Of a DNA stretch of 64,000 nt, positions 4,757 through 38,054 are shown piece after piece (position 1 is the first letter of the stretch; each line of letters begins with the position of its first letter). The position numbers were made by a program, and so were the translations under genes. The DNA comes from an uncultured Armatimonadetes bacterium (lineage in GTDB: Bacteria; Armatimonadota; Hebobacteria; Hebobacterales; Hebobacteraceae), in assembly GCA_963716175.1 (NCBI GenBank), contig OY970296.1, positions 2,752,001 through 2,816,000 of the forward strand, written 5' to 3'. The notes beneath the pieces were generated by a model, which saw only the letters and a list, made by a program, of their open reading frames with translations, searched no databases and was not told the DNA's origin.

Positions 4757-5610
4757 CTCTGCCGCGGTCTTGGCCTGCTGCTCCTGAGTGGCTCCGCCGA
4801 CCGAGAGAAGAACTCATCTTGCAGCTTCCTGGTGACGCGGTCCTGCTTCACCGCCCGCACCACCTCCACCAGGCCGCGGATCCCCGCCTCCAGTATCAGC
4901 GCGCCCAAGTCTGCGTTCGACGCGGAGGGCTCGCCCGCGAAGTGATTGGGGTAGTCGGCATACCACCACATACCGCTATAGGCCTCCAGGCCGCGCAACC
5001 GCTTCTGCGGCAGGCCGCTCTCGTCTCCCGCTTCCTCCAGCTGCACCAGCTCCGGGCGGATCGCCATCATCCGGCTGGTCTCCCCCTCATCAGCATGGCC
5101 GCCCCAGTCTGTCTTGCGCATGGCCTTAATCCGTTTCTCCATCTCGAGATCCCTGGGACGGCCCGCCACATACACCACGTACTCGCGAGGCCGGGCGAGC
5201 TGGGTCTGGCAGAAGTAGTTGAGCCAATCGTTGTTCCCTCCATGGCCATTGACGATGAGGACTTTGCCGAAGCCATTGCGCCCGATGGCGTCGCACACGT
5301 CCTGCAGCAGCGCGGTCAGGAGCTCGGGCGAGATGGTGACGCATCCGGGCTGATGTCTGGCCTCATAGATCTGCCCGAAGTAGTAATAAGGGAAGACCAC
5401 CGCGTACTCGCGCTGCGCGGCGCCGATGGCCTGCGCCCGGGCAGCGATCACATCGGTCCCCAGGGGCAGATGGGGCCCATGCTTCTCGATCACGCCGATT
5501 GGGAGCAGGCACACGCCCTGCGCCTGCTTCACCGCCTTCGGGAAATCGGCGGCGGTCAACTCCTCCCACTGCACTGGCAGGTGACGCGTTCGTTGCGCTC
5601 GCACGGTCAT
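4753..5610 (-). CDS. Creatininase family amidohydrolase
   Basis: PIGVIEKHGPHLPLGTD, NGHGGN, HADEGETS. Confidence 0.92.
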   Translation of the reverse strand: MTVRAQRTRHLPVQWEELTAADFPKAVKQAQGVCLLPIGVIEKHGPHLPLGTDVIAARAQAIGAAQREYAVVFPYYYFGQIYEARHQPGCVTISPELLTALLQDVCDAIGRNGFGKVLIVNGHGGNNDWLNYFCQTQLARPREYVVYVAGRPRDLEMEKRIKAMRKTDWGGHADEGETSRMMAIRPELVQLEEAGDESGLPQKRLRGLEAYSGMWWYADYPNHFAGEPSASNADLGALILEAGIRGLVEVVRAVKQDRVTRKLQDEFFSRSAEPLRSSRPRPRQR

Positions 5611-6078
5611 CTCAGCCTCCTACTGATGTTGGCATGTCGAAGTGAGCCCAGGCTTGCCCTCGGACTGTGCTCGACTTGAGAGTTTGCGGAAGCGGCTCCC
5701 GACTCCTTCCCGCCTTGCCTCCCTGAGCCCCTTGGAGGGCCTCTTGCTGGTCGCAGGGGCGTTTTGCGCCGCTTGGGGCCCCCCCAGGGGCGCGGGAGCG
5801 GCCCCATCGGCTGGCTTGAGAATGCCCTTTCAGGATGGGGTATATCTGCCTGGGTGTCTCCGTGTACCGGGGCGCCCGGAGTAGCTGGCTCGGCAAACAG
5901 CCCGAGCCTTTGGGGACCGCAACCCCCCACCACCCATAGGCGCCCCGGCGTCCGCCTCCGCCGGGGCGCCAGCCCTTCCAGGCGCAGGATAGCCAGCCGC
6001 AGGCGCAGAAGCCCAGGTGCGCCCTGGGAGCCTGCGACAAGGCCCGCGGGATCTTGGTACACCGCCCAAGGAGCTGCC

Positions 6079-34913: not shown

Positions 34914-35953
34914 TCATCTCGCCCCGCTCAGGTCCCAGGTGAAGCGACGGCCCTCGTCGCTCTGCTGAACCGAGAACTGCTTGACGGTGCTGCCGGACGG
35001 GATCAGGAAGTAGTACCGCGCCTTCGCTTCCTGCCCCGGTTCCACGTCCATGCTCACTGTCTCATCCCGGCTCGCGTACAGCAACTCCTGGTTCCAGTCC
35101 AGGTTCTCGCCCTCCGTGGTCCGCACTTTCGGTGCAAGGGCACTCCACCCCAGCGACTGCGTGTCCTTTGTCGGGTTCCGAAGAGTCATGTTGAGGACCA
35201 GGTAGCGCGCGCCCCCTCCGGGGCTTCTTCCTTGATGGCCCCGGTGGTATAGCTCGTAGAGTCGAGTCGCGCGTCCCACATCCCGACCGGGCAATACGTG
35301 CCTACCACCGCGGGCACATCCGCCAGCGCGGTCGCTCCACTCTTGTCCGCCGGGTCGCCGAATGGCGCCGCGAGCCCCTTCACCTTCTTGCGCAGATCAT
35401 AGCGGATCACCAGCTGGTCCTGTGCCTTCACGATCAGCTTGGGCACTTCGCCCCGCGCTGGAACGGTGATGATCGTGTAGGCGTCGAGCTTCTGCGCTGG
35501 CTTCAGGTCGAGGCTGAGCGCTTCCTGGGTCGACTCCACCCCGATGTTCTGCGGGTACTCGCGGTTTGTGTCAGTTGCGTCCACAGCGGTGAAGGAGCAT
35601 ACACTCCATCCGACCCCGCGCTCACTCGGCTGCGGGTTCTGTAAGGTGAAGTGCACTACCAGCAGCTTCTCCTCCGCCGTCGGCACGTAGTAGTCGGCCC
35701 CAATCCGCTTGCGCTCCGCTAGGTACTCGCAGCTCTTGAGAGTGAAGTTGATCGGGCTCTCTTTGCCCAGCGTGTAGGTCAGACCCAACTCCCCCTGGTC
35801 GCCCTTGAGTTGACTCGTCCCCTGCACGACCCGCTTCTGCGGCGCGGGCGGCTTCTTCTTCGCAGCCCCCGCCGCCACGCCGCCCATCACCGCCGCCAGC
35901 GTCGCCAGGCCCAGCACCAACGCCGCCGTCGTCCTCGCTATTTTCCCTACCAT
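34914..35953 (-). pseudogene. Secreted protein with two DUF4352-like Ig domains; frameshift near 35215
   Basis: Signal peptide; repeated VVHFTLQNP/VLNMTLRNP..LKPAQ/VEPGQ pattern. Confidence 0.6.
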
Positions 35954-35975
35954 CTCAGCCTCCTATAATGCTGCA

Positions 35976-36170
35976 ACTTGGATATCCGTACTGGTTTCAC
36001 CAGTATGGAGTGGGTTATAGTCTCCGGGCCGGGGCGTCGGGCGCGAGGTCTTCATTTCAGTTACGGCGCGACCGAGAAGAGGAGAATGACCCCTCGGCAA
36101 CCGGTCCGGAGCTTGGATTGCAACCTGCGGCACGACCGCGCAATTCAGGAGTCGAAGCGGGACCGGAGGC
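35976..36170 (+). ncRNA. Predicted IS110 bridge RNA
   Basis: 5' hairpin 35985-36009 plus two internal loops (36044-36096, 36101-36166), each with an apical CGG-C(G/A)CGA-CCG hairpin and a 3' AGGAG complementary to the core. Confidence 0.75.
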
Positions 36171-36220
36171 GACGAGGAGCTCCCGCGCTGGCGGCAGATC
36201 CATTGCCGAGGAGGTGGTGT

Positions 36221-37648
36221 ATGGCGGAAGCGAGGTTGTTGTGCGTGGGCATCGATGTCTCGTCGCGCTCCCTGGAGGTCGGCTTCTGCGATGGCAGCGG
36301 AGCGCCCATCGGCGGCGTGCAGTCCTTCCCCAACGACGCAACCGGCGCGGCCGCGCTCGGCGAGGCCGTGATGGTGATCGCACGCGCGTGCGGTCGCGGC
36401 ACCCAGGTGATGGCGGCGGTGGAGTCCACCGGCGAATATCATCGGGTGGCGGCGAAGGCGCTGCGGGCAGAGACGCGTCGGACGATCCAGGTGCACGTGC
36501 TCAATCCCCGCGAGGTCAAGTGGTTCCGCAAGCTGGAGCTCAAGGACACCAAGACCGACCGGGTGGATGCCGAGCTGATCGCCCGATTCCTGGCGAAGAT
36601 CCGCCCCCAGCCCCGCGCCCCCATGCCCGAGGGATTCGAAGCGCTCCAGGATGCCACTCGCACCCGGCGCCGCTGCGTGGAGGATCGCACCTCGCTCAAG
36701 AATCGGCTCCACCGGCTGCTGCGCACTCACTTCCCCGGCTATCGGGAAACGCTGGGTGCCAAGTTCAGCGTCCGCACCCTGGTGGCGCTGGCCGCCTGCC
36801 CCTCGCCCCAGGAGCTGCTCCGGCGGGGTGAGGCTCGCCTGAGTGAGTTGCGCAACTCCGACGGCAAGCGTGTCGGAGCCGCCTTCGCCCGGAAACTGAT
36901 CGCCCTGGCGAAAGCTGCCCCCGCGCGCCAACTGCCGATGATGGCGCGTCTCTCCATCCAGGACGCGGCCGTCCGCATCCTGCAACTGAATCGTTTCCTT
37001 CACGGCATGGACGCAGCCGTCGCCCAGGAGCTGGAGCGGCTCTTCCCAGATACGGTTCTGGCTTCGGTGCCGGGCCTGGGCCCGGTCTCGGTGGCTTCCA
37101 TCCTGGCCGAGACAGCCGACATCCGTCGCTTCCCGCACAAAGAGACTTTCGTGGGCTACTGTGGGCTCTATCCCATTGCCTGGGAGAGCGGAGACACCAA
37201 GCTGCGCTTCCGCATGACCCGCAAGGGCAACCGCATGCTGAAGATGACTCTGCTGGTGGCCTCGGCCGCCGCCCGCCAATACAACCCGGCGATCCGCCAC
37301 TTCTACGCCCGCCTGCGAGCCCGAGGCAAATCCAAGAAAGCAGCCGGAGGTGCCATCGCCCGAAAGATGGCTGAGATCGTCTGGGCCGTGCTCACCTTCA
37401 ATCAACCTTGGTCGGAAGAGATCGCCCTGCGCGGAATCGCTCGGGGAGAAGAGATGGCCCAGACACCGAAGGGGGAGCGACGCCTCACTGGAGATGCCGC
37501 GGGTCAAGCCCCGATGCAATCGGGACGACCACTCAAGGCGGCGTCGAGGTCTCGCGCTCCCCAGCGTAATTCTACCATCAGCGCTGGGAAAAACAAGCCG
37601 CCACATCTCCAACTTACTCGCTATGCCAGAGGCACGATTACCCCTTGA
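36221..37648 (+). CDS. IS110 DEDD recombinase/transposase
   Basis: VGIDVS, ESTG, KTDRVDA, SVPGLG, WESG, KGNRMLK; GAGGAGG RBS. Confidence 0.95.
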   Translation: MAEARLLCVGIDVSSRSLEVGFCDGSGAPIGGVQSFPNDATGAAALGEAVMVIARACGRGTQVMAAVESTGEYHRVAAKALRAETRRTIQVHVLNPREVKWFRKLELKDTKTDRVDAELIARFLAKIRPQPRAPMPEGFEALQDATRTRRRCVEDRTSLKNRLHRLLRTHFPGYRETLGAKFSVRTLVALAACPSPQELLRRGEARLSELRNSDGKRVGAAFARKLIALAKAAPARQLPMMARLSIQDAAVRILQLNRFLHGMDAAVAQELERLFPDTVLASVPGLGPVSVASILAETADIRRFPHKETFVGYCGLYPIAWESGDTKLRFRMTRKGNRMLKMTLLVASAAARQYNPAIRHFYARLRARGKSKKAAGGAIARKMAEIVWAVLTFNQPWSEEIALRGIARGEEMAQTPKGERRLTGDAAGQAPMQSGRPLKAASRSRAPQRNSTISAGKNKPPHLQLTRYARGTITP

Positions 37649-37889
37649 CATCAGTTATTGCATCTCCTCACCCGCCGCGTGCTCCTGGGCACTCCCGTTG
37701 CCCAGCCGTAAGTCGCCCGAAGCGCAGGCACAACCCCGGCCGCGATCTGCTTCCCACTACCGCGGCTGGGGGGCAATCACCTCCCCGCTCGGAGTTGCCA
37801 CGCGTCATCTCCGTGTAACAAGCTATCTGCATCGGGCGACGGTGCGATCGCCGTCGTAATCCGATATCGGCACGTCTGGAGCGATTCCG

Positions 37890-38054
37890 GCCGGTTCCAC
37901 GAGCCCCTGACAGCGGCAGGTGGACCCAGTCTACTCCCCGCTCAGCATCGCCTTCCGTCCTCGGTGGCCTCCCGCCTTAGGGGTGTCAGCGAGTGCAGAG
38001 AATACCGCGACTGCGGCTCACGAGCATCCTGGAAGCCAGATGGATTTCTGGACA
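37890..38054. repeat. Dispersed ~250-bp repeat R, 3' part
   Basis: Aligns with 40961-41203 and 42221-42475; ends GATGGATTTCTGGACA. Confidence 0.7.

Follow-up and report, generated by a model that had tools for sequence, protein, structure and literature searches.

How an insertion sequence (IS) comes to lie exactly between the ribosome-binding site (RBS) and the start codon of a host gene is the question raised by a locus in a 64,000-nucleotide stretch of DNA from an uncultured Armatimonadetes bacterium (contig OY970296.1, positions 2,752,001 to 2,816,000 of the forward strand). This stretch is referred to in the following as the window, and coordinates are given in its numbering. The element belongs to the IS110 family and occupies positions 35960–37668 (about 1.7 kb), with a CTCCT pentamer at each end (35960–35964 and 37664–37668). 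The explanation that we favor, with a probability of roughly 0.85, is that the element is guided by a bridge RNA, lands between a Shine–Dalgarno (SD) sequence and an ATG, and carries an antisense frame that is under selection. The case is built from comparison of sequences: the copies of the element in its own genome, their flanks, and relatives from metagenomes.

The element and its insertion sites

The ends of the element were fixed independently by four copies in the same 4.56-Mb genome, found by a DNA search at 100% identity. The bodies of copies 1–3 are 1699 bp long and identical (35965–37663 in the window), and the flanks of all four copies part immediately beyond CTCCT. Directly before the element the four left flanks read CCATCTCAGC, TCATCTCAGTGA, CCATTGCTGA and CCATACCCGTA; the right flanks are CTCCTCACCC, CTCCTCTCTC, CTCCCTCTTG and CTCCTCTCCC. 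In the window, the left junction runs CAT (35951–35953), CTCAGC, CTCCT (35960–35964), ATAATGC, and the right junction TTATTGCAT (37655–37663), CTCCT (37664–37668), CACC. In copy 4 (L004, G000:C1:782977–784690) the body lacks 2 bp of this length and the recombinase is read in two pieces, residues 1–236 and 232–475; this copy is probably inactive and could still move in trans.

All four copies sit, in a single orientation, between an SD pentamer and the ATG of a gene. Their flanks have the form CAT-N6/8/6/7-CTCCT on the left and CTCC(T/C) on the right, so that the minus strand of the left flanks reads AGGAG-N6–8-ATG, followed by an open reading frame (ORF) of 255, 434, 180 or 301 amino acids (aa). 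Two of the downstream genes encode a DNA methylase and an isochorismatase-family protein. In the window, the minus strand of the left junction pentamer is a regenerated AGGAG, 6 nt ahead of the host ATG, and the 255-aa host product has a signal-peptide-like N-terminus and no Pfam family. An earlier, sequence-only reading of this DNA had reconstructed the empty site and the donor junction, had identified the target as the SD and start codon of the gene at 35953, and had named copies at non-SD sites as one observation that would speak against it. The four copies and the 255-aa minus-strand ORF show this reconstruction to be correct, every junction and loop string that it quoted was found at its place, and all four same-genome copies stand at SD–ATG sites. 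No orthologous empty site could be aligned, the best relatives of the host gene being only 47–48% identical, and the reconstruction of the empty site therefore rests on the four copies.

The assignment to IS110, made in the same reading, was confirmed by the Pfam domains of the recombinase: DEDD_Tnp_IS110 (PF01548) at residues 9–172 (5.3e-29) and Transposase_20 (PF02371) at residues 278–362 (2.1e-20). Against PDB chains the protein matched the transposases of IS621 (5.7e-16) and ISCro4 (1.4e-17), distantly and mainly over the Tnp domain. The non-coding ends are 256 nt between the left junction and the recombinase ATG (35965–36220) and 15 nt 3′ of the stop codon. Judged by eye, without a repeat search, neither of the two ends (ATAATGC... 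on the left, ...TTATTGCAT on the right) is an inverted copy of the other.

Among 8000 metagenome candidates scored, 128 protein relatives were found at E ≤ 1e-30, and an alignment built from 39 of these, scanned against metagenome contigs, yielded 35 loci at 36–91% identity. Searches of 61 relatives (E ≤ 1e-40) and of 401 genomes of the phylum (E ≤ 1e-70) each placed the recombinase in three genomes, the element's own included. The two other genomes contribute a copy cut at a contig end (L023), a right-end fragment (L025) and a decayed copy (L022). None of the viral contigs carried the donor-loop pattern described below, and plasmids gave no tblastn match at E ≤ 1e-30. A genome contig scan with a single protein returned 16 distant loci at 23–30% identity, mostly from Treponema, and was not used. 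The SD and start-codon target held beyond the four own copies, in 14 of the 24 metagenome relatives with a usable flank, where the left end always adjoins the ATG. The elements are related by descent, and their insertion sites are single metagenome snapshots.

The predicted left-end RNA and its guides

Thirty-three left ends (the window, L023 and 31 metagenome loci) were aligned over 176 columns. L022 was left out because it has no donor hairpin, L037, L060 and L061 because they have too little upstream sequence, and L046 was also omitted. RNAalifold predicted eight helices with 29 pairs, 20 of them with compensatory changes. In this structure 95.5% of the cells are paired, compared with 32–48% when partners are slid by 1–3 columns, and none of 500 shuffles of the alignment attained any of five structure measures. 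The helices frame a pair of internal loops; within each lies a 4-bp hairpin whose cap reads NNNGA. Conservation holds for the stems; loop 1 has a hypervariable 5′ strand and a 3′ strand that varies at four bases. In the window, the 3′ strands are AGAAGAGGAGAAT (36075–36087) in the target-binding loop (loop 1) and GCAATTCAGGAGTCG (36140–36154) in the donor-binding loop (loop 2). A hairpin at the 5′ end was seen, not scored, at the same place in homologs, with other sequence. Folded alone, 35965–36220 is only mildly more stable than its shuffles (z −2.3; 3 of 200 equal it); the real support for the structure is comparative. The decayed copy L022 (G013:C193, 67% identity) has a left end that lacks the donor-loop hairpin, the right donor guide and a recognizable left junction.

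The donor loop corresponds to the two ends of the element. At six positions its left guide is identical to the right end (TTATTGCAT-CT) in all 27 loci compared, and its variants covary with the right ends (ATTACA in three loci, ATTACTG in L063). Its right guide agrees with the left end in 29–30 of 30 loci at positions 1–5, the lone exception being an alignment slip in L063, and mirrors the left-end variants CTCTT (L034), CTCCA (L059) and CTTCT (L062); donor positions 3–5 likewise track it in 29–30 of 30. Further out, the right donor loop and the left end also look alike (GCAAT.. and GCATTAT), but this likeness is conserved no further than position 5 and was dropped.

The right target guide agrees with the right flank in 26 of 26 loci at positions 1–5, in 24 at position 6 and in 18 at position 7, after which agreement drops to 7, 5 and 4 of 26 at positions 8–10. 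With 17 distinct pairs, none of 20,000 shuffles attained the agreement observed at positions 3–7. Most relatives have right guides reading CT-CCT(T/C)N, the complement of the SD. Others read CT-CCG.. (L048, L056), CT-CCC.. (L057), CT-ACG.. (L058, L063) or CT-TCG.. (L059), and their flanks follow: the non-SD targets CTACGCT, CTACGTC, CTCCGTT and CTCCGGC are each tracked by their guides.

Because the loops covary with the flanks and the element ends, we take the RNA to be a bridge RNA, which the left end thus appears to encode. The sequence-only reading had proposed such a two-loop RNA in the IS621 layout, with loops matching target and donor, and had named guide–target covariation in homologs as a check; the fold bears out the former, the loop matches have the strand sense defined for IS621, and the right target guide and both donor guides pass the latter. 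Its 5-nt shared core, on the other hand, did not hold up. CT is present in 26 of 26 right junctions and 30 of 30 left junctions and is the only part both invariant and shared. The two junction pentamers differ in six elements, and in L034, L056, L057, L059 and L063 each pentamer agrees with its own guide. Since the bases beyond CT vary between junctions and follow separate guides, the shared core is CT, and the 5-nt core of the sequence-only reading consists of CT and three further bases in which donor and target coincide. Both carry CT-CCT, which is why both junctions keep AGGAG.

Some further features of the right side were noted. CG occurs at positions 8–9 past the core in 9 of 28 flanks of distinct insertion sites (window 37671–37674 and homologs), against a background of 10.7% in 1197 SD-start sites of the genome, and at positions 10–11 in three of the four own copies; positions 8–11 lie beyond the 7-nt guide. 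Inspection by eye of the AAT ahead of the stem, past the right target guide, gave no convincing right-end match for a second (‘handshake’) guide. Both right guides in the window (36078–36084 and 36147–36151) show AGGAG in single-stranded loops, giving the RNA two SD-like sequences to which the 16S rRNA anti-SD might conceivably bind, although this is pure speculation.

For the left target guide, donor-loop homology together with L033–L038, L051, L056, L057 and L062 defines a canonical register, in which positions 11–12 of the 13-nt guide strand face the CT core. In 11 non-SD loci guide and flank covary in this register, with 59 matches compared with 37.8 expected (3 of 20,000 shuffles as high). 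The sites at gene starts align instead on the CAT complementary to the start codon. Anchored there, the seven bases past CAT agree with their own flank at 3.9 of 7 positions, compared with 2.0 for other flanks, and agreement is raised at each of the seven. With other SD–ATG spacers as the null, none of 20,000 shuffles reached this value, and the same was true with one row per distinct guide (n = 13). Eight sites have a CAT-to-core distance of 6 nt and four one of 7 nt; distances of 8 and 9 nt occur twice each and 10 nt once, and the single site at 5 nt is the only one in the canonical register. Examples are L032, with 11 contiguous matches at an offset of 4 nt from that register, own copy 2, with 10 and a wobble at an offset of 3 nt, and L030, with 9 at an offset of 2 nt. 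Ranked among 6232 CTCCTC sites, copy 1 is 3rd–4th (shift 1), copy 2 2nd–3rd (shift 3), copy 4 14th–28th (shift 2) and copy 3 about 108th–230th (shift 1). The match of the window site exceeds chance: in the register of the sequence-only reading, its loop 1 pairing is outscored by two of these 6232 sites and equalled by one, and for the left-guide match the window site is in the top 14 of 1197 CAT-N5–9-CTCCT sites in the genome. The bases between the left-guide match and CTCCT could not be element-owned, which would have brought the guide back into register, as they differ among the four identical copies. From the 17 sites used in the shift analysis, the left-guide match of SD-type members appears to track the start codon and not the crossover, lying 0–5 nt off the canonical register, which looks new. 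The short left guides noted in the sequence-only reading are thus half right: the donor guide is short (ATTGCA, six contiguous nt), and the target guide comprises CAT and about seven more.

These shifted matches could be near-cognate or accidental if the right guide alone selected CTCCTYN (‘half-match’ targeting), in which case the start codon would be a by-product of the SD and the canonical register would be the true one. The right guide is indeed the cleanest signal, own copies 3 and 4 have unremarkable left-flank matches, and the canonical register both fits relatives (10 of 12 positions in L051; also L033–L038, L056, L057 and L062) and covaries in the 11 non-SD loci. Half-match recombination and insertion have also been reported for IS621 (10.64898/2026.08.31.748434, in the part of that text available). 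We consider this explanation unlikely, given that the CAT-anchored covariation persists against a null made of other SD–ATG spacers and given the matches in L032, copy 2 and L030. Moreover, own copies 1, 2 and 4 each fall in the extreme tail of the 6232 CTCCTC sites at one non-zero shift, and the two best canonical-register sites in the genome stand empty.

Two other places in the window have the target format. At 5608–5621 (plus strand) the 14 nt of the copy-1 target recur unoccupied (CATCTCAGCCTCCT), as the SD and start of another minus-strand gene, whose protein begins MTVRAQRTRHLPVQWEEL. This empty site differs from the copy-1 target only at right-target positions 6–7 (AC instead of CA/CT) and is therefore a natural test case for the weight of these guide positions. 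The recombinase's own RBS (36206–36223) reads CAT-N7-CTCCTC on the minus strand, with a poor left-guide match.

In L033, L035, L036, L038, L039 and L025 (about 65% identity) the left guide is in canonical register and ends in CT, and the elements are not at gene starts. Their flanks are alike (..GTGGGCT.GTA.CG|CTCCTTC(C/T)GG.CCCAC..), and those of L036 lie inside a longer inverted repeat (CTAGAAATGCT.. / ..AGCATTTCTAG). The target of this clade looks like a palindrome of the REP (repetitive extragenic palindromic) or MITE (miniature inverted-repeat transposable element) kind. By its guides and flanks the clade has the same RNA family, reprogrammed away from start codons, and the antisense frame described next is broken in it.

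The antisense frame and the proposed insertion cycle

On the complementary strand an ORF spans the whole element. Its ATG lies 12 nt past the AGGAG of the right junction, and its stop codon, TAG, overlaps the regenerated SD of the host gene. We compared 14 elements that have a (T/G)TCAT left guide and both ends on the contig with 10 others. The frame is open over 97–99% of the element in all 14, where the other two antisense frames have 11–23 stops, and is broken in all 10 others, which have 5–23 stops or are open over just 26–85%. It opens behind a TAA 9 nt beyond the right-junction AGGAG in 13 of the 14; of these, 12 have their first ATG or TTG 12 nt past AGGAG, and L052 has it 9 nt past. 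Its stop is, also in 13 of the 14, the TAG of TATAGGAG, which lies within the regenerated SD of the host gene. Measured from core to core, 13 of the 14 have a length divisible by 3.

A functionless shadow frame produced by G+C-rich codon usage has to be considered here. These elements are 58–68% G+C, the product has no Pfam family, and the frame is in register with the recombinase codons (36221 − 35963 = 258 = 3 × 86), so that antisense stops would need the rare codons TTA, CTA or TCA. There are, however, none of these in the 6245 recombinase codons of the 14 elements, where about 38 would be expected at the ratio of either the host or the other elements; control A-ending codons number 140. 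The same three codons occur 56 times in 4253 codons of the other elements and at 6.0 per 1000 in long host ORFs. A shadow frame would also not account for the sister clade, which at 61–63% G+C has 7–11 stops in this frame, nor for a frame that stays open through non-coding ends of variable length, keeps the core-to-core length at a multiple of 3, and starts and stops at fixed places relative to both AGGAG copies. We therefore regard it as improbable, slightly more so than half-match targeting. Judging from these counts, the frame seems to be kept open by selection, only where the SD is the target, which looks new. It may let host ribosomes cross the element and re-initiate on the displaced gene, or it may code for a protein that the host expresses; the data do not distinguish these readings.

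Taken together, a bridge-RNA-guided element with a selected antisense frame would work as follows. The element would excise as a circle, whose junction TTATTGCAT-CT-CCTATAAT would form a TTGACA-N17-TATAAT promoter. At the sequence level, the junction gives TTGACA, a 17-nt spacer of 13 nt, CT and CC, and TATAAT; no consensus promoter was found in the integrated element. This promoter would drive an RNA of about 200 nt together with the recombinase. As the covariation shows, the donor loop reads the element's own ends (ATTGCA for one strand, AGGAG facing CTCCT for the other). The right guide AGAGGAG of the target loop pairs with the top strand CT-CCTCT, the complement of the SD, and the left guide, UCAU and about 7 nt, with the bottom strand over the start-codon complement and the SD–ATG spacer. 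Crossover is at the CT dinucleotide, and recombination would be by the Tnp-domain serine as taken over from the IS110 family (PMC11208160). Because of this guide geometry, the element always lands between SD and ATG with its left end beside the ATG. The 7-nt right guide may fix the top-strand crossover, so that the left guide need only hold the bottom strand nearby. After insertion, read-through host transcripts could be translated across the element and the ribosomes handed to the displaced gene, as in the ‘hed’ arrangement of IS900.

A bolder version of this scheme, which we offer tentatively and hold to be rather doubtful, is an elastic bipartite target code, in which the left guide docks independently, up to 5 nt off, with bottom-strand bases looped out, combined with a near-harmless element that brings its own SD copy and an antisense frame that would take host ribosomes over the 1.7 kb and let them go at the TAG within the regenerated SD. 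Such a code would only work if top-strand chemistry alone commits insertion, and an IS110 element has been described as integrating ‘predominantly through top-strand insertion’ (10.1101/2025.10.25.684509, in the portion available). If the near-harmless reading is true, the displaced gene is still translated and Rho-dependent polarity avoided; the two parts together would explain IS900-type targeting and the purpose of ‘hed’.

Several observations weigh against the guided element with a selected antisense frame. Rfam 15 gave no match at E ≤ 1 in 35500–38000. The elements share descent, so the shuffle counts overstate independence. At the 17 SD-type sites there is no covariation in the canonical register (45 matches compared with a shuffled mean of 42.3; 5715 of 20,000 as high), so that the IS621 geometry does not apply to the left target guide there, and at shift 0 all four own sites are mid-distribution among the 6232 CTCCTC sites. 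In own copies 3 and 4 the left-guide match is only moderate (150 of the 1197 SD-start sites score higher), and genome sites that match the guides better stand empty. Copy 3 has CTCCT on its left and CTCCC on its right, and the latter agrees with the right target guide at 4 of 7 positions. Conserved mismatches affect the left donor guide twice: at the base after its six matching ones and, past a C facing the core C, at another C that faces the core T. Bulged or gapped guide pairing is not known from experiment, and the word ‘bulge’ is absent from the available text of PMC11208160. As for the antisense frame, a 12-nt distance from SD to ATG is long for efficient initiation, the product belongs to no known family, and in L034 the frame is broken although the element stands at an SD–ATG site.

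That the recombinase protein itself reads the SD and start region, the structured left end being a leader that regulates recombinase expression, is very improbable, since among the relatives a change in flank or end bases goes with a change in the loop, the stems remaining paired, and relatives at 36–48% protein identity whose loops read CTACGCT, CTACGTC or CTTCG have inserted at just these sequences.

The features of the locus are collected in Table 1. One further block, ..ACTCGAGGTCC..CTCCCGC.., was seen by eye to be conserved in the right non-coding ends of L041–L054 (about 50% identity), downstream of their shorter recombinases. In the window (37500–37600) it falls inside the C-terminal extension of the 475-aa recombinase; a second RNA or a binding site for a protein is conceivable here.

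Table 1. Coordinates of the element, its predicted RNA and the adjoining host gene in the window.
Feature	Position	Strand	Basis or remark
Insertion sequence	35960..37663	+	One CT core and body 35965–37663; four-copy comparison
Left junction pentamer CTCCT	35960..35964	+	CT core 35960–35961, then first three donor bases CCT
TATAAT −10 box, left end	35964..35969	+	Would join right-end TTGACA on circularization, 17-nt spacing; conserved in relatives
Predicted bridge RNA	35976..36178	+	5′ end guessed from −10 box; 3′ end is limit of conserved paired region
5′ hairpin CGUACUGG-UUUCA-CCAGUAUG	35987..36007	+	Single-sequence fold
Left target guide TTCATTTCAGTTA, 5′ strand of target-binding loop	36051..36063	+	Same sense as left-flank top strand
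Inner hairpin of target-binding loop, CGG CGCGA CCG	36064..36074	+	Helix 3; compensatory change in 3 of 4 pairs
Right target guide AGAGGAG, 7 nt	36078..36084	+	Complementary to CTCCTCT, i.e., CT core and CCTCT, the SD
5′ strand of donor-binding loop, TGGATTGCAACCT	36114..36126	+	Left donor guide ATTGCA at 36117–36122, matches right end
Inner hairpin of donor-binding loop, GCGG CACGA CCGC	36127..36139	+	Helix 8
Right donor guide AGGAG	36147..36151	+	Complementary to left-end CTCCT
IS110-family recombinase, 475 aa	36221..37648	+	Stop TGA inside −35 box; Pfam and PDB matches
TTGACA −35 box of putative junction promoter	37645..37650	+	Sequence; same pattern in relatives
Right end of element (left donor) TTATTGCAT	37655..37663	+	Copy comparison, donor-guide match
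Right junction, CT core and right target CCTCA	37664..37670	+	6 of 7 bases agree with right target guide
Antisense ORF, 562 codons, spans whole element	35963..37651	−	No Pfam family
Host gene cut off from its promoter by the insertion	35186..35953	−	255 aa; ATG is CAT 35951–35953 on plus strand

Comparison with known systems

In IS621 the RNA is said to run in the order 5′ hairpin, target loop, donor loop, as it does here. As that element is described in the available text of PMC11208160, the present one resembles it in its DEDD and Tnp recombinase, its CT core, a promoter rebuilt across the circle junction, and a long non-coding left end encoding an RNA with target and donor loops. In each loop, moreover, the left guide has the sense of the top strand and the right guide is complementary to the top strand. 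It differs in that the protein likeness is distant and limited to the Tnp domain (E 5.7e-16), and in that the right target guide is natively 7 nt, compared with 4 in IS621, extendable to 7. In SD-type members the left target guide does not keep register with the core, and the target is an SD and start codon instead of REP elements. Donor and target share CT-CCT, so that the left junction nearly regenerates the target, and an antisense ORF covers the whole element. Most features of the IS621 type thus appear to be present, the missing one, in SD-type members, being contiguity of the left target guide with the core.

The elements called seekRNA systems (the IS1111 group and the IS110 type; PMC11187229, in the portion available) likewise have a non-coding RNA that pairs with the target and the element ends. 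In the IS1111 group, however, that RNA is downstream of the transposase and there are subterminal inverted repeats, whereas here the RNA is upstream and the right non-coding end extends just 15 nt past the stop codon. A survey of 32,190 bridge RNAs with 86 covariance models found guide lengths to vary widely (bioRxiv 10.64898/2026.10.21.760802, in its section text), and the present RNA family probably lies inside that diversity, already catalogued though in other terms. SD or start-codon targets, out-of-register left guides and antisense ORFs do not appear in the section text of the survey; the survey as a whole mentions Shine–Dalgarno once.

Targeting of the SD and start codon as such is not new. 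IS900 and IS901 of the Mycobacterium avium complex insert between the SD and the start codon (PMC2942039, citing Doran 1997 and Inglis 2003), and IS900 has the target motif CATGNNNNNNTCTCCTT and an ORF, hed, that spans the whole IS on the complementary strand (PMC8141618); both statements are from the portions of these papers available. The target here, CAT-N5–10-CTCCT(C/T)N, has the same strand relation, and the whole-element complementary-strand ORF is a likeness drawn from the published description (PMC8141618). The two differ in host lineage and in length (1.7 kb here, 1451 bp in IS900), and hed is described in PMC8141618 as being without its own RBS or start codon, whereas the frame here has a start codon 12 nt past the captured AGGAG. 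The guide match here follows a start codon at varying distance. In older work on IS900 the spacing is reportedly variable as well (N4–6). The main texts searched yielded no literature joining IS900, or targeting of the SD and start codon, with bridge RNA; SD-like targets, or this RNA family, could be present already in supplements.

Two points are of practical interest for the engineering of bridge recombinases: a right guide that is naturally 7 nt long and, if real, the apparent freedom in the gap that separates the left-guide duplex from the core. They matter for predicting off-targets and for the debate on whether insertion needs one strand or two. It has been known since 1997 that IS900-type elements land between the SD and the start codon and carry an unexplained antisense ORF over their whole length. 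At this locus and in its relatives we see guide bases that spell the SD and the start codon, and relatives reprogrammed to other sites. A bridge RNA would thus provide an explanation at the RNA level for a targeting habit first seen in IS900 in the 1990s.

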